DNA of 37,635 bases from Holosporales bacterium. Its GTDB lineage: Bacteria > Pseudomonadota > Alphaproteobacteria > UBA3830 > JAIRMZ01. The notes beneath the pieces were generated by a model. It ran no database searches. It worked only from the letters and a program-made list of their open reading frames with translations, and was not told where the DNA came from. Of this stretch, positions 1,669 to 35,593 are shown in pieces. Position 1 is the stretch's first letter. Every line of letters begins with the position of its first letter. Both the position numbers and the translations under genes were made by a program. The stretch lies in contig JAITIJ010000032.1 of assembly GCA_031279495.1 (NCBI GenBank), positions 1-37,635 of the forward strand, given 5' to 3'.

Positions 1669-2261
1669 GACAGAAAATGTCCCTTAAACAAAGCGATATC
1701 CTGTGCATCAACTGGAGAAGTTCTCTCAGGATGCCACATAATACCATGAATGGGTAGAGTCCTGTGCGCAATTTCCTCTATAGTATCGTCTTCTGCGCAT
1801 TCTTTAATCTCGAACATGGATGCAGTAGTGCGCAGTCCATAATCGTGGTAGCTGTTGACCGTTCTTCCAGAACTCAGGCGATGGTGTTGCCCTATGTGAT
1901 GAGGAACTTTTTCCAAAGGCCCATGGAAATAATGCTGTATCACTTGCATGCCGCGACAAACACCTAAAACGGGAAAAGAAGCAGATACAGCATACGCTAG
2001 AATTGCCCTTTCTGTCGCATCACGCTCTGGAGCTGTTCCTCCATGGTTTTGTAATGTATTTCCTCCACTAAAAACGACGCCCACCAAAGGTGCTGTTTTT
2101 ATCAGGATAAGAGCAATATCTGGATTGTTGGGAATAAGCACAGGAACAAGGGAGCACAAGGCCAAAAAAGAGTTCCATTGCTGGTCAAGAGCATCGCGAC
2201 GTTCTGTCGTGTTTTCGTATGCGTGCTCTTCTACCCGTGTTGTAATGCCGACGAGCTTCAC
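1665..2261 (-). CDS. Class I glutamine-amidotransferase-like hydrolase (peptidase C26 family); candidate gamma-glutamyl-CDP-amidate hydrolase (Cj1417-like)
   Basis: Catalytic 'GVCRGMQ' Cys motif and 'WHPE' His/Glu motif. I moved the start to GTG at 2261, which overlaps the upstream TGA (2258-2260) as GTGA and gives about 198 aa. The 261-aa track ORF would overlap the upstream gene by 193 nt. Confidence 0.75.
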   Translation of the reverse strand: MKLVGITTRVEEHAYENTTERRDALDQQWNSFLALCSLVPVLIPNNPDIALILIKTAPLVGVVFSGGNTLQNHGGTAPERDATERAILAYAVSASFPVLGVCRGMQVIQHYFHGPLEKVPHHIGQHHRLSSGRTVNSYHDYGLRTTASMFEIKECAEDDTIEEIAHRTLPIHGIMWHPERTSPVDAQDIALFKGHFLS

Positions 2262-4564
2262 CGTATTACTTCGACTTTTTGGTTGGCGCAATCTATATGA
2301 AGGATTTGTGCGTGCGCCCATTGCGTGTAGAGTTTTTCTCCTGCTCCGATAATTGCTGGTAAGCCTAATTCTCCTGCGCGGATTGCCATATGAGAATTCA
2401 CCCCGCCGTAAGTCGTCACAAATCCGGCAATACCGTGCGTAAAAATCCAATCGAATCCAGGATCTGCACTGGGGATAAAAAGAATTTTTCCATGTAATGC
2501 GTGCTCACGCGCTAAATCTTTAAGAATAGGCGCTGTAACAGATTTGCGGGTGATGAAATTGGGATGATCCTCTGACAAGGCAAAAGAGTAGAAATCTTCC
2601 GTCTTTGTAATGAGTGGAGGTAAGAGAATCTGCGATGCGATCGTGTACCGCTTTTTGCCTAACTCTATACTCTTTTGTATCGTTTGAAGTATATCCCAAG
2701 AAGAGGCGTACATTTCTAGAATGCTTTTTATGTCGACATAAGACAGTTCTTCTGCATCAAGGCCATGTTGCGCGCCGAACCCCTTGAAGAGGGATAATAC
2801 GTTGCTGAGCGTTTTGGTGAAGACGAATTTGGCATACTCGCGCCCCTCGATTGCTGCTTTCATGAAGGTGAAAATACCTACGACATTATGGTCTAGTTTA
2901 TGCTGTTCTAGCAGATGTTCTACTCGTTGCATCTGAGAAATGGACAATGTAAAGGGCATTTTTTCTGTAAAATGTTCGTTTCTGACTTTAGTCCAATCGA
3001 AATACAAGCTCGGCGCTTCGTCATAACGTGGGGAAAGGATATCATAGGTTCCTGGCCGTAAGTGCCCATATTTTTCAAGGAATACTCCTTGCGACTCTGT
3101 TGCCAGATCATGCGCCATTTGAGAGCTAACCGAATTGAGGCTATTAAGGAAATCCGAACGCTGGTCTTTTGAAAGAATGCCGATGGACACCATCGAATTT
3201 AGGATCTGTACCGCGATAAACCCTGCACGCGCGAGCCCCGCAAAAGGCAATGTGCCATACCTTCTGCAATCTTCTACCATCCAATAGATTTTTGTTAAAA
3301 AATCGAAGTCTTTGTTGTGCAAAATGGTGTCGTGACGGTGTTTTAATTCTTCAATCTTTTGAGCATCCGTCACCCAAAGACCAGTATCATTTCTGATAAT
3401 CGTGTTTGTTAGTTCTCTGAGCGATTCCTGTAAATGCTGAAGATCTTGCTTGGAAAATCCAGCTATTTGCAGAGATTTAAGACGTTCCGGTGTATCAAAA
3501 GTGTAACAAGAATGCGCAATCTCGAATTCGATTTTATCGTGTAGATGAGGAGTTGTTTCCAATGTATCCAGATAATAATCTGCTAACCTATCAGAGAGAG
3601 ATTCGTCAAGCGTTTTCGGCAGAAAGGAGTTGAAGCTTACGCGCACATCGACATAAGGAAGACCGATAAAATCAACAAGAAGGGGAAAACTGCGCAGGTT
3701 CCTGTATCCATAATTATCGCGCTGATAAGCCCACGTACTGTCCGTAATCAGTGTTTTATATAGGCTGAGCGCTAAAGGCTTTGGGCGCACTCCAATGATT
3801 TCCGCCGGATTCCAATCTGGCATAACGCCAAAAAGTGCTCTTCTACCTTTTAGATATGGATGCGGCTTGTTGAGAATATCAAATCGCTTGGCAGCCATAT
3901 CAAGCCAAATCTGTTGATTGGTTATGGGAGAAAGCGTGCAGACTAGTGGTCGGACCTGGAACAAGAACAAATCTTCTTGCTGGTCGAAAGCAAATTCGAT
4001 GTCAAGATTTTGTGTGTCTAAGCGCTTTTCCAAAGTGTGCGCGAGGAGGAGAAGCTTTTTTAAACGTGTGTCTTGATGATGCGTGACACATCTGGCGATA
4101 AATACAGTATTTAGATGCGCTGTTGCTCCCGCTGTAACAGCAGTCGTATCTTGTGTCGTGGAAAAGTTGATGACGTAATACGGAGCCCCGCTATTAGGGT
4201 CTTTCGTGAACAAAACGCCACTCATAGCAACGTCTTGCAGCATCGGTTGCAACAAGACTTCATCTTTAGAAGAAAGAGCATCGCCGTAGGAAGCAAAAAC
4301 CGTCTCAATCGCTTTTCTTAGGCCGGAAAAAGGAACATTCAGCAGAGATGTGTACTTTCCGGCATTAGAAGTGTTTTCTTGATCTTCTGTTGTGGCACTG
4401 CTGCGCACAATAAAAAGAGGCCAGTTTTTCTGGCACGCTTCCTCTAAAAACACTCCTGGCGCTCGCTCCCACATTTCATGAGAGCAAACAAGCATTTCTA
4501 GAATCTTCGCTTCGCAAAGATCTGTAAGAAACTTAAGCGTCTGGGCTTTTGTACTGCACTGCAT
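2258..4564 (-). CDS. PEP-utilising / pyruvate-phosphate-dikinase-like phosphotransferase (N-terminal ATP-grasp PPDK_N domain plus C-terminal phosphohistidine swivel domain); candidate L-glutamine kinase (Cj1418-like)
   Basis: 768-aa ORF. The C-terminal 'GGVNSHMAIRAGELGLPAIIG' is the phosphohistidine mobile-domain signature. The N-terminal 'STKAQTLKFL...FIVRSSATTEDQ' resembles the PPDK_N nucleotide-binding domain. No PEP/pyruvate TIM-barrel domain is evident. Confidence 0.75.
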   Translation of the reverse strand: MQCSTKAQTLKFLTDLCEAKILEMLVCSHEMWERAPGVFLEEACQKNWPLFIVRSSATTEDQENTSNAGKYTSLLNVPFSGLRKAIETVFASYGDALSSKDEVLLQPMLQDVAMSGVLFTKDPNSGAPYYVINFSTTQDTTAVTAGATAHLNTVFIARCVTHHQDTRLKKLLLLAHTLEKRLDTQNLDIEFAFDQQEDLFLFQVRPLVCTLSPITNQQIWLDMAAKRFDILNKPHPYLKGRRALFGVMPDWNPAEIIGVRPKPLALSLYKTLITDSTWAYQRDNYGYRNLRSFPLLVDFIGLPYVDVRVSFNSFLPKTLDESLSDRLADYYLDTLETTPHLHDKIEFEIAHSCYTFDTPERLKSLQIAGFSKQDLQHLQESLRELTNTIIRNDTGLWVTDAQKIEELKHRHDTILHNKDFDFLTKIYWMVEDCRRYGTLPFAGLARAGFIAVQILNSMVSIGILSKDQRSDFLNSLNSVSSQMAHDLATESQGVFLEKYGHLRPGTYDILSPRYDEAPSLYFDWTKVRNEHFTEKMPFTLSISQMQRVEHLLEQHKLDHNVVGIFTFMKAAIEGREYAKFVFTKTLSNVLSLFKGFGAQHGLDAEELSYVDIKSILEMYASSWDILQTIQKSIELGKKRYTIASQILLPPLITKTEDFYSFALSEDHPNFITRKSVTAPILKDLAREHALHGKILFIPSADPGFDWIFTHGIAGFVTTYGGVNSHMAIRAGELGLPAIIGAGEKLYTQWAHAQILHIDCANQKVEVIR

Positions 4565-5840
4565 TGCTGATATCCAAAAATCTTAAGCGTTTGAGCTTGA
4601 TGTATTCTTTGAGAAGATCCGACAAATAATGAGGGCGTTGAATTAAACGTTTACCGAGTATGTCGTCCATTTCCGGAGTATCGGCATCAGGCTTGATCGA
4701 TCTTTTCCTTACAACAAGGTGCAGAACATATCGCAGACTTAGTCGTGCTACTCGCAAAACATCGACAAGACTTAATTTGGCCTCTTCTGGAAAGAACTTA
4801 ATCAAAACATCATGATAGAAAAGCCGGGCAACGGCTTCCTGATCTGCCGTAAGGATCCTCTCCCCTTTCTCGGTAAAGTTCTTATTTACAGAAGCCGTGT
4901 TTTTTCGCTTTCCAGAGAACCCTACCCAAGGATTTCCATAGAAAGTCGCTTGTTTTAGCGTAGGATCATACCGAACACCTAAAAAGGCACATACATGCGC
5001 CATAACAGCATCAAATTCCTTGTGTAATCCAGGCAGATAAAGAAGATAAATACTTTTTGGGATTTTCCACATATCATAAAGAGCGGATACCCTATGCGTC
5101 CGAACATCTTCTCTGTTGACGAGACTAGATTCGTAGGATTCACGCATGGAAGCGATCAATTGCGCATTTTTTACCGGGTCTTTTTGAAGAATGGCTAATT
5201 TTCTCTTTGATGCTCTTTCCGAACTGAGAGCCGATTCCAGAGTCTCTACAGGATTCCTCAGTAGAGTAATAAAGCTCGCCTTTGGAAAGTCTTGAAAGAA
5301 TTTTTTATGCTGTCTAAAGACGTCTTTTCGTGGCCCTTTCCGAGTAGTTGTCATGACGTGATGGCTATGAAGATGAAGAAGAATGAGCTTTAGATTCCTC
5401 AATGATCTATTGCATATTAGAAAAAAAGCGATATGGATCAGCAGAAAGTATTCTTTGCGTCCGCAATCACCATATAATTGACATAACTGGAAAAAGATTC
5501 TGCAGAACGCGCTCTTATCAATATTTCTCAGACTCTGTGGAGGATCTTCACAAGCAGCGGGCCTGAAAACCCCCCTCGCGAGATCGAACAATCCAGAAGA
5601 GTTCTTTTCAAAGAGTTCCAGGTATTCTTCTGGAGAAAATTTCTCTTCTTCGTTTGCGTAAAAATCATATACGTTTGTCTCTATAGGCAAGCTAGAAACT
5701 TCTTCGTGTTGATCAAAGAGTCCTTTGAAAAAAGTAGACCCCGCTCTTCCATAAGGCGTCATAACTGCGCACTGCACTCGAGAAAGAGCGTCAACTAACT
5801 CCTCACGCGTTAAATTTAGATCTTCAAGCATTCCAGACAT
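4533..5840 (-). CDS. Sulfotransferase-fold protein (binds a 3'-phosphonucleotide donor); acceptor and transferred group unknown
   Basis: 435-aa ORF. It has an N-terminal P-loop-like 5'-phosphosulfate-binding motif 'YGRAGSTFFKGLF' and a 3'-phosphate-binding type motif 'LLRNPVETLES'. It overlaps both operon neighbours. Confidence 0.6.
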   Translation of the reverse strand: MSGMLEDLNLTREELVDALSRVQCAVMTPYGRAGSTFFKGLFDQHEEVSSLPIETNVYDFYANEEEKFSPEEYLELFEKNSSGLFDLARGVFRPAACEDPPQSLRNIDKSAFCRIFFQLCQLYGDCGRKEYFLLIHIAFFLICNRSLRNLKLILLHLHSHHVMTTTRKGPRKDVFRQHKKFFQDFPKASFITLLRNPVETLESALSSERASKRKLAILQKDPVKNAQLIASMRESYESSLVNREDVRTHRVSALYDMWKIPKSIYLLYLPGLHKEFDAVMAHVCAFLGVRYDPTLKQATFYGNPWVGFSGKRKNTASVNKNFTEKGERILTADQEAVARLFYHDVLIKFFPEEAKLSLVDVLRVARLSLRYVLHLVVRKRSIKPDADTPEMDDILGKRLIQRPHYLSDLLKEYIKLKRLRFLDISNAVQYKSPDA

Positions 5841-6304
5841 TTCTCCGTTACCAAGCGCGCTTGTTGCTCCAAACTTGTCCTTTCATCAAAACAAAAATCC
5901 GAATACCACGGCTCTTCGTAAGAGTTATCCACCATATCCAGATTCCGCTTATACAGTCCCTTTGCATCGCGCAGTTCCCGCTCTTGCTGGCTAATACGCA
6001 AATAAACCTCGATGTACTGTTTGTTGTTATCGCGGTTCCACCGTCGAACTTCTTCAAACATCGAAATTGTAGCAACTATCACAAGAAACCCTTGCTCCGA
6101 TAGTAACCTTGCCAGCCTAGAGTAAACATGGGAAAGCTTCCTCCTCTCTTCATGGGAGACGCCGGACTCTTCCCCTAAAACAGCGCGCATTTCATCTCCG
6201 TCAAGGAGCAAAGGGTGCAGCCCGGTACTACAGAGCTGTTTGCTAACGGCGCGCGCTAATGTCGTTTTTCCTGCCCCTGAAAATCCGGTAATCCAGACAA
6301 CCAC
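5816..6304 (-). CDS. Adenylylsulfate (APS) kinase family protein; candidate cytidine diphosphoramidate 3'-kinase (Cj1415-like)
   Basis: 162-aa ORF. It has the Walker A motif 'ITGFSGAGKTTLA', plus 'LDGDEMR' and 'RDAKGLYK' motifs typical of CysC-type kinases. It is the first gene of the operon. Confidence 0.8.
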   Translation of the reverse strand: MVVWITGFSGAGKTTLARAVSKQLCSTGLHPLLLDGDEMRAVLGEESGVSHEERRKLSHVYSRLARLLSEQGFLVIVATISMFEEVRRWNRDNNKQYIEVYLRISQQERELRDAKGLYKRNLDMVDNSYEEPWYSDFCFDERTSLEQQARLVTEKCLECLKI

Positions 6305-6394
6305 AAAACCGCAACCCTCCCAAGCAAAATCTTTCTAGCATATCCTTTCAGGCAAAGATACACTCTGCCCGCCAAAACAACCAGCCTCAACAAA

Positions 6395-6781
6395 CTAGCA
6401 AGAGGTCGTTAGTTGCCCCGGAAAGAGAATCTTAATAATACCTCCAAACGCGCACATCAATTGAGAATCATTGGTTAAGGCAGGAGAAGCTCCTACAAGA
6501 ACAACGGGATTTCCTACAATCCATGGCGGAATAAGGGCAAGAGTGCACGGCATTGGTGTCAGCACTCCAAAGGCCGCTGCGGTAGCGGCAGCCGTTGCGG
6601 GGTTCGCCAAACTTGTACATACCCCAAAAGGAGAAACATTCAAGAAAGGAACAGAGTCCATAATCGTTCCCATCGGCGGACCACCGCAAAAAGCACAAGA
6701 AGTGGGCAGAAAATTCAAAGGCGTTGGCACCATTCCCATTGAACATTTGCATAAAGCACCCTGAACGACAGGAAGACCCAT
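6395..6781 (-). CDS. DUF4280 (PAAR-like) domain protein
   Basis: Near-textbook DUF4280 pattern: 'VVQGALCKCSMG', 'PFGVCTSLANPATAAATAAAFGVLTPMPC', 'PPW', 'LMCAFGGIIKI..PGQ'. The start is set to ATG at 6781; the track uses TTG at 6787. Confidence 0.8.
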   Translation of the reverse strand: MGLPVVQGALCKCSMGMVPTPLNFLPTSCAFCGGPPMGTIMDSVPFLNVSPFGVCTSLANPATAAATAAAFGVLTPMPCTLALIPPWIVGNPVVLVGASPALTNDSQLMCAFGGIIKILFPGQLTTSC

Positions 6782-6783
6782 GT

Positions 6784-7503
6784 TCAACCATTGTCCTGTG
6801 GAGGACAGACGTTGCCCTTACGATCAAACTGTACACTGTTTTGAAGCTTTCCAGCGTTGAAATAGGCGACTTCCTTGATGCCTCCATCATCGTAGTATTG
6901 GCGTCTCTCTCCCTCCAAAAGATCCGCATGATAGAGAGCTTCTTCCAGCGGCTGACAATTGGGATAGTATGTGACGCTCGAGCCTTCTAATTTACCAGCA
7001 ACATAGGAAGAAGTGCGAACAATAGTCCCACCGTCTCTGAAGAAAGTAAACATTCCTTCAAGTTTTCCGGATACATAAAACGCCTCAGCAGCCACCTCTC
7101 CAGTGGGATTGAAATATGTTGCTTTCCCCTCTTGCAAGCCGTCAACATAAAGCACCTCTAACGTCTTACAGCCATCTTTATAAAAAGTGGCGAGTCCATT
7201 AAGGGTATTGTTTGCGTAAGTTAGGGTTTGTGTAACGTTACCATCTTCAGCATAAATAAAAGCGCTGCCAGAAAGTACCCCACCAACAAACATCAGTTTC
7301 TGTGCGCATCCTCCAGATGAAAAAAACACCTCAGTTGGTCCATCCAGACATCCCTCTCTGTAAGTCATTTTTTGAAGGAGCGTTCCCTGCGTATCGCAGA
7401 TATCCACAACACCATTTAAAGAGGCCTGCTCTTGATCCGTATCTGCTTGCACAGAAGAGAGGTCAGCCATCGAAGAATCTCTCACAAATCTGTAAGAAAA
7501 CAA
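6784..7503 (-). CDS. MORN-variant repeat protein (YwqK-like repeat architecture)
   Basis: 239-aa ORF built from about 23-aa repeats of the form 'G.L.G....YY..G.......Y..GKL.G'. Its stop lies 2 nt before the DUF4280 start. Confidence 0.6.
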   Translation of the reverse strand: MFSYRFVRDSSMADLSSVQADTDQEQASLNGVVDICDTQGTLLQKMTYREGCLDGPTEVFFSSGGCAQKLMFVGGVLSGSAFIYAEDGNVTQTLTYANNTLNGLATFYKDGCKTLEVLYVDGLQEGKATYFNPTGEVAAEAFYVSGKLEGMFTFFRDGGTIVRTSSYVAGKLEGSSVTYYPNCQPLEEALYHADLLEGERRQYYDDGGIKEVAYFNAGKLQNSVQFDRKGNVCPPQDNG

Positions 7504-24319: not shown

Positions 24320-24934
24320 ATGACGAAAAGAGTTCAGGCAAAGTACAAAGTTGATCGTCGTCTTGGGGTGAATCTGTGGGGGCGTGCAAAAAGTCCCGTG
24401 AATCGTCGCGAGTATGGTCCTGGTCAACATGGAACGCATCGTAAGAAGCCAACAGATTATGGCGTTCAACTTGCTGCAAAACAGAAACTGCGTTTTTACT
24501 ATGGAAATATTGGAGAACGTCAATTCCGCAATCTTTACCAAGAGGCTTCTCGGCTGCGCGGAGATACGAGTGAGAATATTGTTTCTCTTCTAGAGCGCCG
24601 TTTAGATGCGGTGGTCTATCGCATGAAATTTGCGGTAACTGTTTTTGCCGCTCGTCAGTTAGTTAATCATGGACATGTTTTTGTCAATGGGAAAAGGGTA
24701 AACACCTGCTCTTATCGCGTAAAGGAAGGTGATACAATCGAAATTGCGCCTACAATGAAGGAAAATGCGATTTTATTGCTGGCTTTAGAGTCAAATGAGC
24801 GCGATATCCCAGATTATATGGAAGTCACTCCGAAGGAATGCAAAGGGGTGTTCACACGTGTGCCGAAACTAATGGATATTCCTTATCCTATAGTCATGGA
24901 GCCCAATCTCGTTGTTGAATTCTATTCTCGTTAG
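24320..24934 (+). CDS. rpsD: 30S ribosomal protein S4
   Basis: '[15 protein letters not shown]', '[16 protein letters not shown]' and the S4 RNA-binding domain 'RLDAVVYR...ARQLVNHGH'. Confidence 0.95.
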
Positions 24935-24947
24935 GGGAAAGAGTTTC

Positions 24948-25433
24948 ATGGAACAGCTCTTATCAATGTGGAATACGTGTGTTCTCTTCGTTCGCAATGT
25001 GTTGAGCATTGCGCAGCGTATTTTTGCTTGGCAGCCTCCTTCTAGAAACGTCCTAGAATGTGGCCGGTATTATACACAGTGTTTTAAAGCGCGCATCCAC
25101 GCTAAATTAAAGCCGTACTCTAAGGTTGACGCCTTTATCACTGGTACAATGACGATGATGACGGTAACGCTCATTTTGCTGGTTCAGCAGACGAACTACT
25201 ATGAGCACGATGTGTGCAATTTGACAAATGATCGTATAGACTTGGTAAAACGCATTGCGAAAGAAATGAAAACGACAGAAGCTTTGCGCACGACTATTGA
25301 GCAGTTGGAAACGCAAAACACCTCTCTGACGCAACAGGTTAAGCGACTTGAGGATCAAAACACTTCCCTTTCTCAACAAGCACGAAACGCGGCAGATGCG
25401 CAGGATACAGGCTCTGTGCCCCCCCCCCCCTAG
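24948..25433 (+). CDS. Hypothetical membrane/coiled-coil protein ending in a poly-Pro tail encoded by a C12 tract
   Basis: ATG 24948 follows a GGGGAAAGAG RBS. The protein contains the internal repeat 'LETQNTSLTQQVKRLEDQNTSLSQQ'. The stop codon directly follows the C12 tract. Confidence 0.45.
   Translation: MEQLLSMWNTCVLFVRNVLSIAQRIFAWQPPSRNVLECGRYYTQCFKARIHAKLKPYSKVDAFITGTMTMMTVTLILLVQQTNYYEHDVCNLTNDRIDLVKRIAKEMKTTEALRTTIEQLETQNTSLTQQVKRLEDQNTSLSQQARNAADAQDTGSVPPPP
25419..25430 (+). repeat. Homopolymeric C12 tract
   Basis: I counted 12 consecutive C directly in the sequence. It lies immediately 5' of the TAG stop at 25431-25433. Confidence 0.95.
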
Positions 25434-30112: not shown

Positions 30113-30790
30113 ATGACACGCATTTTATGTCTAGCGCCGCACACTGACGATGCTGAGCTTGGTGCCGGAGGGACTCTTGCGCGATTTGTCGAATGGGGGG
30201 GGGGGGCGCATGTCTATGTGGCAGCGTTTTCTCCTTGTCGGCAGTCTTTACGTGAAAGTGGATTGCCGGAGGATGCCTTAGAAAAGGAATTTCACGCATC
30301 GATGGATCTTTTAGGGGTTCATGGTCGTGCGATATACGATTTTCCAGTACGAGAATTTCCCACACATCGGCAAGAGATTCTTGAAGAAATGGTGCGTTTA
30401 CGAAAAGACACGAAGCCGGATCTTGTTTTAATCCCGTCTCCTGGAGATGTTCATCAAGATCATCACGTGATCCATCAGGAGGCCTTACGTTGTTTCAAAT
30501 GCGCCAATGTATGGTGTTATGAGCAGCCTTGGAACCAAAAAACAACAACGTGTACGATGTACATGCCGCTTACCGAGGCGCATCTGCAGAAAAAATGGGC
30601 AGCCATCGCGCAATACAAAAGCCAGATGACATTAAAGCGATCTTACTGTACGTTGGAGTTTGTTGCAGGATTGGCGCGCGTTCGTGGTGTACAAGCCGGT
30701 TGTGCCTTTGCAGAGGCTTTTGAGGCGGTGAGGCATGTGTGGGCACCCTCACCGGAGGTGCAAAAAATAGGATCTGAGGGGAGATTGTGA
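30113..30790 (+). CDS. PIG-L / LmbE family N-acetyl-sugar deacetylase (contains G12 tract)
   Basis: 'ILCLAPHTDDAELGAGGTL' and 'HQDHH' metal-site motifs. The G12 tract at 30195-30206 encodes 'WGGGA' and is in frame in this sequence. Confidence 0.75.
   Translation: MTRILCLAPHTDDAELGAGGTLARFVEWGGGAHVYVAAFSPCRQSLRESGLPEDALEKEFHASMDLLGVHGRAIYDFPVREFPTHRQEILEEMVRLRKDTKPDLVLIPSPGDVHQDHHVIHQEALRCFKCANVWCYEQPWNQKTTTCTMYMPLTEAHLQKKWAAIAQYKSQMTLKRSYCTLEFVAGLARVRGVQAGCAFAEAFEAVRHVWAPSPEVQKIGSEGRL
30195..30206 (+). repeat. Homopolymeric G12 tract inside the PIG-L deacetylase gene
   Basis: I counted 12 consecutive G directly in the sequence. Confidence 0.95.
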
Positions 30791-31736: not shown

Positions 31737-32417
31737 TTGGAAAGTGTGACTGTTTATGTTCTAACAGAAAGGCCTGAAAGGTTTGATAAAGTTGCTTCTA
31801 TTGGTAGACAGAAACGACCAGAACTAGAATTTATTCATTGTCCGAGCATTCGGGAATTGCTCCAGTTTGCTTCTCTCTTCAAAGAGAGAGATGTGTTGTT
31901 ATCCTACTGTTTCCACGAGCTTATTCCGGTATCTGTTTTTAAGTTTTTCAAGACTGCATTGAATATTCATGTCGCGCCACCTAGTCGTCCGGGTTTAGAC
32001 GGACATTTTTATGCAGCATACGAAGGTGAGGTGACAGAATACGGGGCGACAACGCACATTATGAACGCAAAATTTGACGATGGAGAGATTTTGGATGTAG
32101 AGCTTGTTCCTGTCGATAAAAACGCTAGTGGTTGGGATTTAGCGGCCGTTGCTCGCGCTTGCTCGATTAAGCTGATAGAACGCCTTTTTGAGAATGGATT
32201 CAAGAAAAATCCAATTATCGGCAATATATCCTGGGGAGGCAAAAAAACGAAGAGGACAGATTTTTTGTCAGTTGCATGCAGAATTCTCCCAACAGATAGT
32301 ACAGAGGAAGTAAAACGTAAATTTCACGCTTTCCAGGAAGGGGTTCCTTTTAAGAATCTCTATATTGATTTGCATGGGCTCAGGTTTCGCTTTGAAAAAG
32401 TTATTGAAGACGGTTAG
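31737..32417 (+). CDS. Formyltransferase-like domain protein (paralog 1)
   Basis: 226 aa with a TTG start. 'LNIHVAPPSRPG' and 'THIM....DDGEIL' resemble the formyl_trans_N catalytic region. It is clearly paralogous to the N-terminal half of ORF 33816-34928. Confidence 0.6.
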   Translation: MESVTVYVLTERPERFDKVASIGRQKRPELEFIHCPSIRELLQFASLFKERDVLLSYCFHELIPVSVFKFFKTALNIHVAPPSRPGLDGHFYAAYEGEVTEYGATTHIMNAKFDDGEILDVELVPVDKNASGWDLAAVARACSIKLIERLFENGFKKNPIIGNISWGGKKTKRTDFLSVACRILPTDSTEEVKRKFHAFQEGVPFKNLYIDLHGLRFRFEKVIEDG

Positions 32418-32440: not shown

Positions 32441-33433
32441 TTACAGTAACAAATTCACTGCCTCTATTACTTTGTTTTGGTCGACTAATGTCAGTGAGGG
32501 GTAGATAGGAATCGATATAGAGCCATTAAAAGCTCTTACTGCGTTCGGATATAGGACATCTGGATATCCGAGGAGTCTGTGAATAAGTCGATCCACACCG
32601 CGCCGCACAACAATGGCTCGCTCGAAAAATCCTCTGCAAAGGCTTTCAAAGGATTTTTTATTTTGAATGAGAGGAAATCGGAAAAAGACGTTACCCGTTT
32701 TTTCGATAAACTTCGTATATTCTGATGGTATACAATTGAAATATCTTTCCGCTATTTCTTGTCTCCTCTGCTTAATATCTTCGTAGTAAAGGAACTGCTC
32801 CTTTAGGATAGTCAAATTTAGATGAGAGGGGCAACCGCCGAAACGGTAGCCGAAAAAATCCTCTTCTATATAATTTCTAAATTTAATCTCTGTGTTGCAA
32901 ATTGAAAAAGCCCCACCTCCACCAGCATGCAAAAGCTTTGTCGGACCGAATGAATACAGGATAAAATCGCCATGTTCTCTATCTGGAACACTCAAGACAT
33001 CGCAACTTTGACAAAGGTCGTTTATCAGCACAACGCCAGGTATCCTGAATTGCGAACAATCTAAAAACGTACCAAATAAATTGACAAGAACAACGACTTT
33101 AGTATTTTTACTTACCTTGCTCTTTACCGTTTCTGGGGATACATGCCAGTATGTGCCAATGTCACATAGGATAGGTTTGCATCCTGCGTTCACTACTGCC
33201 AAATAAAGTGACCGGCACACGTACGTGGGAAGGATGACTTTGTCTTGAGGAGACAAACTCAACCCCTTTAGAATCCAATGAAGCGCGTGTGTTCCGCTTT
33301 GTGTGAAATGCAAGTTTTTCCGGTGGAATTTGGCTTCAAAGACGCTTCTGACGCACTCTTCCATGGAAGCTGAAACAAAAAAAACCACTTTCGACGCAAG
33401 AGCGGACCTTATCAGCAAGAGACGGAGGAACAA
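32441..33433 (-). CDS. DegT/DnrJ/EryC1/StrS family sugar aminotransferase, 5' region frameshifted at an A8/T8 tract
   Basis: 'SGTHALHW' and 'YSFGPTKLLHAGGGGA' (PLP-Lys region). The expected N-terminus 'MILHSQPFVPPSLADKVRSCVESGFF' lies in another frame from ATG 33455 and joins if one T is removed from the run at 33377-33384. Confidence 0.75.
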   Translation of the reverse strand: MFLRLLLIRSALASKVVFFVSASMEECVRSVFEAKFHRKNLHFTQSGTHALHWILKGLSLSPQDKVILPTYVCRSLYLAVVNAGCKPILCDIGTYWHVSPETVKSKVSKNTKVVVLVNLFGTFLDCSQFRIPGVVLINDLCQSCDVLSVPDREHGDFILYSFGPTKLLHAGGGGAFSICNTEIKFRNYIEEDFFGYRFGGCPSHLNLTILKEQFLYYEDIKQRRQEIAERYFNCIPSEYTKFIEKTGNVFFRFPLIQNKKSFESLCRGFFERAIVVRRGVDRLIHRLLGYPDVLYPNAVRAFNGSISIPIYPSLTLVDQNKVIEAVNLLL

Positions 33434-33678
33434 ACGGCTGAGAATGAAGTATCATCAACACAAAACCCAAACCTCACCTTTTCAAGAGGAGGACTACTAT
33501 CTTAGTGTACTACCCTTTAGGCCCCTCTTGCTATATCACGCTTACGTTGCAAACAGAATTATTTTCGTATTTTTGTGGGAGGTGGAGTATTTCTAACGGG
33601 AACAGGGGCGTATTGTCGCATATAGGCTTGTTAGTGGAAGCTTTCAATGGTCGGAATTCTGTTGTGCAACATTATACG

Positions 33679-33808
33679 ATACAAAAGCCAGATGACATTA
33701 AAGCGATCTTACTGTACGTTGGAGTTTGTTGAAGGATTGGCGCGTGTTCGTTGTGCCCAAGCTGGTTGCATCTTTGCAGAGGCTTTTGAGGTAATTAGGC
33801 ATGTGTGG
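33679..33808 (+). pseudogene. Duplicated 3' fragment of the PIG-L deacetylase gene
   Basis: By hand alignment these 130 nt match 30613-30742 with 13 mismatches and no indels. The first 53 nt are identical. The fragment would encode 'YKSQMTLKRSYCTLEFVEGLARVRCAQAGCIFAEAFEVIRHVW'. Confidence 0.85.
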
Positions 33809-33815
33809 TGACACT

Positions 33816-34928
33816 ATGTTAGATATTCAGACGCTTTATGTTCTAACCAAGAGAACGGAAATTTTCGATAGAATTTTCGCCATTGGGAAGGAGAAATCTC
33901 CAGGATTAGTTCTGGTCCACTGTGCAAATGTTCGGCAATTATGTGAATATGTACCTCTTTTAAAAGAAAATGACATGTTGTTGTCTTTCGGTCACGGAGA
34001 TATTGTTCCTCCTTCTGTTTTGTCGTTATTTAAAACGGCAATTAATGTTCATCCAGCGTCTCCCGCCTATCCCGGACGAGACGCGCATTTTTACGCGGCT
34101 TATGACGGTGTAACAGAGTATGGGGCGACAGCGCATGTCATGACCCCAAAAGTCGATGATGGGGAGATACTGGATATCGAACTGGTTTCAGTGAAGAAAG
34201 ATTCAAGCGGGATGGAATTGTTGGAGATCGCAAATTCTTGCGCTTTTGCTTTAATGGAGCGTCTATTTATGTGCGAGTTTAACAAAGACATAAGAAAGAA
34301 AGGGATCTCTTGGGGTGAACGGAAAACAAAGAGAGCAGACTTACCGGTTACTTGTAAGATTCTTTCAACAGATTCTGCGGAAGAAGTCGAGCGTAAGTTT
34401 CGGGCTTTTCAGAAAGGGTCTCCTTTCAAGAATCTCTATATTGACGTATACGGTTTTAGATTTCGCTTTGAAGACATTGTTAGTTGTCGTGAGAGGGGGG
34501 GGGGGGTAATTGTCAAGATGGCGCATAATTTTCTTACAAAAGCCTTTCCATTCGTAGAAAAAGTAGAAGAAACTATTGAAGCAGAACCTCTGTGGTTGCG
34601 AGAGAATTTCTTTATCGATCTTCCTGAAAAGTGGAACTTATCTCTTTCTTTTTTGGTTGAGGGGATAGTAGCAGGATTCGCGATTGTCTCTCAGAAAACA
34701 CCTTTTTGTGCGCATTTGCACCGTCTTTGTGTTTTGCCTTATTACAGAAACCAAGGCATTGCCGGCGATTTAATTTCTTCCTTGAAGAATCTCTGCAAAA
34801 ATTCTTACAAATTCTTGACTTTATCCGCTTACGATAACAAAGAAAATCTTCTCAAATTTTATCAAAAAAGAGGGTTCTTTCCAATGCGTGAGGAGGAAAA
34901 GCAAACGCTCATGATTTGTCATTTATGA
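33816..34928 (+). CDS. Formyltransferase-like domain (paralog 2) fused to a GNAT N-acetyltransferase domain across a G12 tract
   Basis: The N-terminal half aligns with ORF 31737-32417. The C-terminal half has GNAT motif A 'YRNQGIAGDL' and 'KFYQKRGF'. The track start at 33801 lies inside the duplicated deacetylase fragment; ATG 33816 aligns with the start of paralog 1. Confidence 0.7.
   Translation: MLDIQTLYVLTKRTEIFDRIFAIGKEKSPGLVLVHCANVRQLCEYVPLLKENDMLLSFGHGDIVPPSVLSLFKTAINVHPASPAYPGRDAHFYAAYDGVTEYGATAHVMTPKVDDGEILDIELVSVKKDSSGMELLEIANSCAFALMERLFMCEFNKDIRKKGISWGERKTKRADLPVTCKILSTDSAEEVERKFRAFQKGSPFKNLYIDVYGFRFRFEDIVSCRERGGGVIVKMAHNFLTKAFPFVEKVEETIEAEPLWLRENFFIDLPEKWNLSLSFLVEGIVAGFAIVSQKTPFCAHLHRLCVLPYYRNQGIAGDLISSLKNLCKNSYKFLTLSAYDNKENLLKFYQKRGFFPMREEEKQTLMICHL
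34495..34506 (+). repeat. Homopolymeric G12 tract at the formyltransferase-GNAT domain junction
   Basis: I counted 12 consecutive G directly in the sequence. They encode 'RGGGV'. Confidence 0.95.
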
Positions 34929-35593
34929 AAACGATTGCTATTCATCAGCCGAATTTTTTGCCGTGGAGGGGATATTTTCAGAAAATCCATCAGGCCGATG
35001 TTTTTGTGTTCCTGGATGATGTGCAGATTTCGTTACGACATAACGCAATAACCCACAGAACTCGTTCTTTGCGGAATGGAACACCCCAATGGCTTACAAT
35101 GCCAGTTATAAGAGCAGAAAAGATTTTGGATGTTCAGATTGGAGATAGAGCACGTTTGTGCAAATTAGAAAGAAAAGTCCGTGAGTGGTACTGCAAAGCA
35201 CCGTATTTTAAAACGATTTTTCCGATTCTTGAGCGCGTATTTGCGCATGAAACAGACTCCTTAGCCGAGTTTAATATCAATGCGATCACACTTTTGTGCC
35301 ATCATTTGAATATACACACGCCGCTGATGCGCTCTAGCACGCTCAACATTTCTTCCACAAAGCAAGAACGCATTCTCGACATTGTGACAGCTTTAGGTGG
35401 AGACCGATATTTATCCGGCAAAGGTGCTATAGATTATCAGTCTGAAGATGCGTTCAAAGACCGCAACATTACCCTTGAATATATTTCCTATAACCTTGCG
35501 CCTTATCCACAATTTAATAGCAACACATTTGTTCCTGGCCTTTCTGTTATTGATCTTCTCATGAACTGCGGATTACCTCCTCCACATCTATAG
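34925..35593 (+). CDS. WbqC family protein
   Basis: 'MKTIAIHQPNFLPWRGYFQKI...DVFVFLDDVQ' is the WbqC-family N-terminus. ATG 34925 overlaps the upstream TGA as ATGA. Confidence 0.8.
   Translation: MKTIAIHQPNFLPWRGYFQKIHQADVFVFLDDVQISLRHNAITHRTRSLRNGTPQWLTMPVIRAEKILDVQIGDRARLCKLERKVREWYCKAPYFKTIFPILERVFAHETDSLAEFNINAITLLCHHLNIHTPLMRSSTLNISSTKQERILDIVTALGGDRYLSGKGAIDYQSEDAFKDRNITLEYISYNLAPYPQFNSNTFVPGLSVIDLLMNCGLPPPHL

Follow-up and report, generated by a model that had tools for sequence, protein, structure and literature searches.

Can a run of twelve G residues, placed between a formyltransferase-like domain and a GNAT acetyltransferase domain, act as a genetic switch that joins the two into one protein or releases them as two? 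This question is raised by the window, the whole stretch of 37,635 nucleotides that was analysed and one whole contig, in which flagellar genes (flgH, flgA, flgG/F and fliM), ruvABC and rpsD are found together with a cluster of sugar-modification genes. In RuvB, the window shares 86% identity with a MAG labelled Holosporales and about 70% with other Alphaproteobacteria, and the host is an uncultured Holosporales-related alphaproteobacterium. The reading favoured here, to which a probability of roughly 55% is assigned, is that the G12 tract is hypermutable through slipped-strand mispairing and brings about a reversible fusion and fission of the formyltransferase (FT) and the GNAT protein, a form of "C-terminal phase variation".

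Three 12-mers at a sugar-modification cluster

The genes on either side of the tract belong to a cluster with the following contents.

25.7-35.6 kb (about 10 kb): sugar-modification cluster
within the cluster: gene for an AsnB-type amidotransferase
within the cluster: HisH/HisF-like and WbuX acetamidino genes
within the cluster: gene for an intact PIG-L deacetylase, with a second G12 tract
within the cluster: gene for a TylF-type methyltransferase
31737..32417, + strand: stand-alone FT paralog (223-226 aa), free of homopolymers and 55% identical to the FT of the fusion
32441-33433, - strand, opposite to its neighbours: gene for a DegT-type aminotransferase
33671..33808, + strand: remnant of a PIG-L C-terminus, directly upstream of the FT; 83% identity in tblastn to residues 165-210 of the intact PIG-L
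34925..35593, + strand: WbqC-family gene (Pfam WbqC, E 1.5e-63), the last gene after FT-GNAT

The PIG-L remnant forms one copy of a direct repeat (D1, 33671-33808 vs 30613-30749) that is 88% identical as DNA, and as it abuts the FT start while an FT paralog lies at 31737-32417, a segmental duplication of a PIG-L/FT module is indicated. The stop codon of GNAT and the start codon of WbqC share the sequence ATGA, and translation of WbqC is thus probably coupled to that of GNAT. Such overlapping stops and starts are used throughout the operon, in which most starts are without a good Shine-Dalgarno (SD) sequence. A literature search on the function of WbqC returned nothing useful. The DegT-type reading frame encodes only 330 aa and leaves about 30 positions at the beginning of the Pfam model uncovered; either a truncation or a wrongly assigned start may be the reason. 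Elsewhere in the window, at 2258-7503, genes for a PEP-utilising enzyme-like protein, a sulfotransferase-like protein, an APS kinase and a MORN-repeat protein form a cassette that points to the sulfation of a product and bears no relation to the G12 tract. Rfam and tRNA scans of the window gave no matches.

The original prediction had placed a G12 tract at 34495-34506, at the junction of the formyltransferase and GNAT domains, and both the position and the domain boundary were confirmed. In the 37.6 kb of genome on which clustering of the tracts could be judged, only three G/C runs longer than 6 are present, each of exactly 12, and the next longest run is 6. Counted on both strands, GGGGGGGGGGGG has 3 matches in the window vs 0.00 expected from 100 dinucleotide-preserving shuffles. 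All three 12-mers lie within or at the edge of the glycan cluster (25.4-35.6 kb), with none in the other 25 kb. To our knowledge, runs this long are unstable in every bacterium studied. The other two are as follows.

25419..25430, + strand: C12 tract in the last codons of a coiled-coil-like ORF (24912-25433), immediately followed by the stop TAG
30195..30206, + strand: second G12 tract, codons 28-31 (WGGG) of the intact PIG-L gene, a classical 5' site for on/off switching; in frame at 12

When the PIG-L gene was rebuilt with 10, 11, 13 or 14 G, translation stopped after 46-56 aa. Its orthologs have two fewer residues at this site, and the tract looks like a two-codon expansion at a conserved Gly. 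For C12, other lengths would merely exchange a tail of 0-15 aa of the ORF 24912-25433; the glycan cluster follows 280 nt downstream with its first gene, and nothing resembling a promoter was detected in the vicinity of the tract. Likewise, promoter and terminator scans around the junction tract gave nothing exceeding background. The hexamer TTGTCG is found 3-5 nt to the left of both G12 tracts (30186-30191 and 34484-34489), with a register that differs by 2 nt; it was considered as a common motif and rejected, as it is out of register and probably due to chance. That all three tracts are exactly 12 long is an odd coincidence and counts against the favoured reading; an equilibrium length common to the tracts, chance or a bias of the technique may stand behind it.

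Predicted products at each tract length

The features that matter at the junction itself are given below.

33816..34494, + strand: sugar N-formyltransferase-like domain or gene (FT), left complete by each of the three states of the tract
34489..34491, + strand: GTG, candidate start of a complete stand-alone GNAT (MRGGGGVIVKMAHNF...), in the GNAT frame only at 10/13/16 G; its use is presumed
34495..34506, + strand: G12 homopolymer, putative slipped-strand mispairing tract, encoding Gly228-230 of the fusion
34507..34517, + strand: 11-nt spacer, containing the TAA (34507-34509) that ends the FT at 11/14 G
34518..34928, + strand: GNAT acetyltransferase domain or gene from its first ATG (136 aa; Pfam Acetyltransf_1/7/10)

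The open reading frame extends over 33801-34928, but its start is more likely the ATG at 33816, which gives a protein of 370 aa. In this protein the Pfam domain Formyl_trans_N is matched at residues 58-137, and the best match of the FT family profile to a solved sugar N-formyltransferase is 6nbp (E 4e-12). The AlphaFold model of the 370-aa protein has a mean pLDDT of 87.7. With its FT part, Foldseek ranked WbkC, WbtJ, 6v2t, VioF, Rv3404c and 6nbp at the top (E about 1e-12; TM 0.6-0.73 normalised to the target), and the same part of the model covers WbkC, WbtJ, VioF, Rv3404c and 6nbp along their whole length. Residues Asn77, His79 and Asp114 are invariant in the FT family alignment and are aligned with the catalytic residues of a solved formylation domain (INLHP...VDTGDIL). 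By fold, size and catalytic residues the protein would be sugar N-formyltransferase-like, with formyl transfer itself as a prediction. The GNAT part is recognised by Pfam at residues 260-359, with Acetyltransf_1 above the cut-off (E 3.9e-10), and its translation contains the acetyl-CoA motif RNQGIAG (R/Q-x-x-G-x-G/A type).

The tract lies between the two domains in the protein as well. FT homology extends to about residue 222 and codon 227 is the first of the tract, which leaves the FT complete in all frames. According to the family alignments, the tract-encoded GGG (228-230) falls between this end and the GNAT Met 235, and hence in a linker. These glycines belong to residues 221-230, the block in which the AlphaFold model is least confident (pLDDT 66).

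To test the frames, the gene was rebuilt in silico with 8-16 G. With 9, 12 or 15 G an FT-GNAT fusion of 369-371 aa results (370 aa at 12 G). With 8, 11 or 14 G the FT ends in '...CRERGGG*' at the TAA 34507-34509 straight after the tract, and with 10, 13 or 16 G it ends in '...GGGGNCQDGA*' at the TAA 34526-34528, which overlaps the GNAT start. A change of one unit thus alters the product, with three distinct outcomes for 3n, 3n+1 and 3n+2 G. The original prediction had described a fusion at 12 G, an immediate TAA at 11 G and a stop soon after the tract at 13 G, all of which the rebuilt gene reproduced, and its statement that the cut-off forms resemble a stand-alone FT agrees with their match to the paralog at 31737-32417 and to the orthologs.

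Where a separate GNAT could start is less straightforward. An ATG at 34517 had been proposed, 11 nt after the tract; the spacer of 11 nt is correct, while the codon itself occupies 34518-34520. Pairing of the G-run with a generic anti-SD was predicted at -11.6 kcal/mol with a spacing of 9, the strongest value among 13 starts. This makes the proposed role of the run as a Shine-Dalgarno-like element plausible, and with it initiation at 34518 in all states. A product that starts at this ATG would, however, be without its first beta-strand, which is encoded by 34507-34517, and the proposal of a separate GNAT from this codon has to be amended accordingly. In the GNAT frame, V-I-V-K is encoded by codons 34506-34517, which begin with the last G of the tract. 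In the AlphaFold model a strand is formed at about residues 230-234 (VIVK being 231-234), followed by a helix at 237-253. Furthermore, IVKM aligns with IAPL/IIPL of stand-alone GNATs, which start two codons further upstream, at a point corresponding to the 3' end of the tract. Based on the model and these alignments, the state of the tract probably affects the integrity of GNAT as well.

According to the favoured reading, the G12 tract would occupy the short and variable stretch that separates two genes in an operon for the modification of surface glycans, and gain or loss of a single G would lead to one of three states. With 3n G, the assembled state, one FT-GNAT fusion of 370 aa with a Gly linker would be made. 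With 3n+1 G, the arrangement of the nearest relative, the FT would end at the TAA 8 nt inside GNAT, and GNAT would be made separately through translational coupling, through the G-run as a ribosome-binding site, or from the GTG at 34489. With 3n+2 G the FT would end right after the tract and GNAT could be started only from the ATG at 34518, without the first strand, or from a weak ATT, as in this state a TGA closes the frame of the GTG. The FT would be intact in every state, while GNAT would be tethered, free or impaired, and the level of WbqC would perhaps change through the ATGA overlap. Variation of the tract in vivo, a difference in phenotype between the states and maintenance of the tract by selection are inferred. 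Whether formylation or acetylation of a sugar depends on the state is speculation, and as GNAT is perhaps translated in every state, the switch could also be phenotypically silent.

Alternatively, the tract could act as an expression-level switch for the downstream genes by setting how many ribosomes reach GNAT and, via ATGA, WbqC; ribosomes would read through in the fusion state and re-initiate in either of the remaining states. The overlap of the GNAT stop with the WbqC start, the rarity of good SD sequences among the starts of the operon and the unchanged FT in all states would fit this explanation. The strong SD-like G-run could, on the other hand, render GNAT initiation independent of the tract state, and such a role is considered improbable. 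Several products could also arise from a single DNA template, if transcriptional slippage or ribosomal frameshifting on the G-run yielded the FT alone next to FT-GNAT. In other bacteria, polymerases can slip on long homopolymers, mainly on A/T runs, for which the process is far better documented than for G/C runs. As nothing in the data indicates slippage or frameshifting, this origin is regarded as very improbable.

The junction in a relative and in other genomes

The nearest relative of the locus was found in the Holosporales MAG Ct408_bin51 (contig JAIRST010000060, here L001), where FT (238 aa, 68% identical), GNAT (136-139 aa, 53%) and WbqC (66%) are separate genes in the order FT-GNAT-WbqC and the FT stop overlaps the GNAT start. 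In a DNA alignment with the window, the coding blocks flanking the junction align well, whereas the spacer of approximately 30 nt between them does not. This spacer holds C8AC3 in the relative, and the C8 is the only G/C run longer than 6 in its contig of 11.5 kb; a Logan assembly of the relative, made independently, contains this C8 too. Just as the frame at 12 G passes without a stop into GNAT in the window, so it would in L001 at C7 or C10, with a fusion of 371-372 aa. An orthologous fusion that lacks a homopolymer had been named as a finding that would speak against the switch, and the nearest ortholog instead turned out to be split, with a homopolymer (C8) at the same junction. A tract thus occupies the corresponding site in a related genome, with a different base (C vs G), and the two would not necessarily descend from one ancestral tract. 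A small inversion was considered as an explanation for G in the window and C in the relative and was discarded, as the part outside the homopolymer does not match. In Cd354_bin124, which is closer by RuvB (86%), no such locus was found.

The split arrangement in L001 is also the starting point for the alternative that two separate genes are the native state. In that case 13 or 10 G would be the true or predominant length, with G12 as a miscount in the consensus or a minority variant without function, and the tract would be tolerated in a spacer, maybe as the ribosome-binding site of GNAT, while the fusion would be without a role. The FT stop of the window at 10/13 G is the homologous TAA of the relative (ATGACGTATAA vs ATGGCGCATAA), from which it follows that the split, overlapping arrangement is likely ancestral. 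The overlapping stops and starts of the operon and the strong pairing of the G-run with the generic anti-SD fit two genes, and long poly-G is hard to size in short reads. Two genes are likewise suggested by the rarity of the fusion. No protein matching both halves was found among the best 150 of 1.84 billion protein representatives in an exhaustive HMMER search. Among these 150, FT homologs are about 215-240 aa long, or approximately 470 aa with an unrelated C-terminal region, and GNAT homologs are 136-149 aa long. With such longer homologs and no second fusion among the best 150, FT-GNAT does not represent a fixed architecture; on this sequence comparison, the fusion is peculiar to the assembly of the window and not an established architecture.

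Against two genes as the only native state stand the distribution of the tracts and the starts of GNAT. Three 12-mers in one 10-kb cluster, with none of 7-11 in 37.6 kb, are unlike the outcome of neutral drift, and as PIG-L is in frame at 12, this length is at least not systematically wrong. In addition, the upstream ATG of the relative is lost in the window, which has ATT (34509-34511) instead, and translation from a canonical codon would include the first GNAT strand in two cases only, the fusion frame and, at 3n+1 G, the product of the GTG at 34489. A purely two-gene locus is thus judged to be rather unlikely. It is also possible to regard the tract as an artefact of sequencing or assembly, for example dark-cycle poly-G or a join of chimeric origin. 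Two-colour Illumina instruments often produce false poly-G, and only one assembly spans the G12 tract: a Logan contig of the same strain, an independent assembly with 100% identity, ends there, beginning at the first base after the tract with no G at its end. Such a break would fit a variable tract, but it may be purely technical, since the assembly is fragmented anyway (L004 ends at ordinary sequence) and a contig end with zero G is unlike the effect of length polymorphism alone. The gene order across the tract is that of the relative, two assemblies of the relative contain a tract of its own at this junction, and 12 nt are shorter than any assembly k-mer, which means that reads must span the tract. 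An artefact is accordingly hardly credible, and the reversible switch stays the preferred explanation.

Close homologs amount to only a handful. Genome scans with FT, GNAT and WbqC alignments revealed no genome closer than the 68%-identical relative, and a metagenome scan with the FT alignment returned one distant fragment only (27% identical); neither kind of scan yielded another strain. The original prediction of a slippage switch between fused and split forms, or with loss of GNAT, is borne out for the three frame outcomes. Variants in tract length were not found in exact look-ups for G8-G16, as neither the predicted FT products nor the stand-alone GNAT had an exact entry in a collection of 15 billion proteins. 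The switch is partly supported: judged from the sequences, it would be mechanically possible, and comparative evidence is in its favour.

Beyond the nearest relative, the partners of the junction occur in other combinations. In 19 of 24 other genomes (loci L006-L029), an FT-like gene and a WbqC-family gene are no more than 4 kb apart, and often they are direct neighbours. Related GNATs stand alone in PIG-L-GNAT-WbqC operons without an FT, both on a Logan contig (L031, 4364-6096) and in a gammaproteobacterial MAG (L113, 2328-3949), and GNAT-WbqC would appear to be a conserved pair as well. In L113, a C10 run is additionally present at 6277-6286. In L012 (CALBMH010000039), an alphaproteobacterial MAG with 45% GC, a G11 run (3752-3762) and a G7 run are situated between gatB and a stand-alone FT-like gene (3848-4528), whose start they precede by 86 and about 50 nt; this may be a promoter-located tract. 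The FT homologs of approximately 470 aa were examined as possible FT-WbqC fusions, and this was rejected as their C-terminal region has no similarity to WbqC or GNAT. The same region is without a Pfam match.

Comparison with known systems

If the tract varies, an uncultured Holosporales-related bacterium would use stochastic switching of surface glycans as is the case in Campylobacter, Helicobacter and Neisseria, and strong, fluctuating selection on the surface would be implied, e.g. by a host, grazers or phages. The locus would also offer a clean, natural and reversible fusion and fission of two recognisable enzymes with a split ortholog, and could inform on the effect of tethering consecutive or competing acyltransferases. 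If the tract is invariant, the finding becomes an annotation caveat, as the "bifunctional" protein would probably be two genes. A more far-reaching interpretation would be that the homopolymer between FT and GNAT has been selected in two diverged Holosporales-like species, that fusion and fission switch the N-acylation of a surface or flagellar amino sugar between formyl and acetyl, and that stochastic glycan variation operates in host-associated, protist-dwelling bacteria. This would be the first contingency-locus system in the lineage and the first in which both fused partners are defined enzymes; taken as a whole, it is considered unlikely.

Poly-G contingency genes are well known from the flagellin-glycosylation and LOS/capsule loci of Campylobacter jejuni, which belongs to the epsilonproteobacteria with about 30% GC, and they are mostly 5' on/off switches. 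The window resembles C. jejuni in that several G tracts are found in sugar-modification genes, beside flagellar genes and an acetamidino (PseA/WbuX-type) pathway.

Closer in mechanism is Helicobacter canadensis, in which C-terminal phase variation was defined by Snyder et al. 2010 (PMC2823697) with eight genes that carry a 3' poly-G of at least 10. One of them, HCAN_0643, is annotated as 'Met-tRNA formyltransferase' and has a 3' (G)11, and HCAN_0660 merges with HCAN_0661 in one frame, with length variation shown in reads (PMC2823697). H. canadensis and the window have in common a 3' poly-G of at least 10, a location in a glycosylation region, a core protein that is made in all frames and one frame that merges with the next gene; in both, a formyltransferase annotation is found among the tract genes. 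In H. canadensis, however, the fused partners are hypothetical proteins and variation was seen in reads, whereas in the window, which comes from an alphaproteobacterium, each partner can be recognised as an enzyme and variation is a prediction.

Fusion across a homopolymer is known from Neisseria as well. NGK_1211 and NGK_1212 are fused by a G-tract in N. gonorrhoeae (Zelewska et al. 2016, PMC5320596), and in N. meningitidis pglB2 is described, as cited in PMC5320596, as fused to a downstream glycosyltransferase gene via a poly-A tract. In these cases a homopolymer at the gene boundary sets whether one or two polypeptides are made, as proposed for the window, and pglB2 also encodes a protein-glycosylation enzyme. 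The Neisseria cases differ in that they involve other enzymes and another base and rest on a comparison of several strains.

A final comparison concerns the enzymes themselves. WbkC, WbtJ, VioF, Rv3404c and the Pantoea enzyme 6nbp share the fold, the size of about 240 aa and the catalytic Asn/His/Asp with the FT of the window, at an identity of only 16-22%. Unlike those stand-alone enzymes, the FT subfamily of the window is usually found beside WbqC, as in the 19 of 24 loci. A boundary tract as such is already known in kind from H. canadensis and Neisseria (PMC2823697, PMC5320596); the window adds a new lineage, two partners that can each be recognised as an enzyme, and a tract position that is common to a relative.
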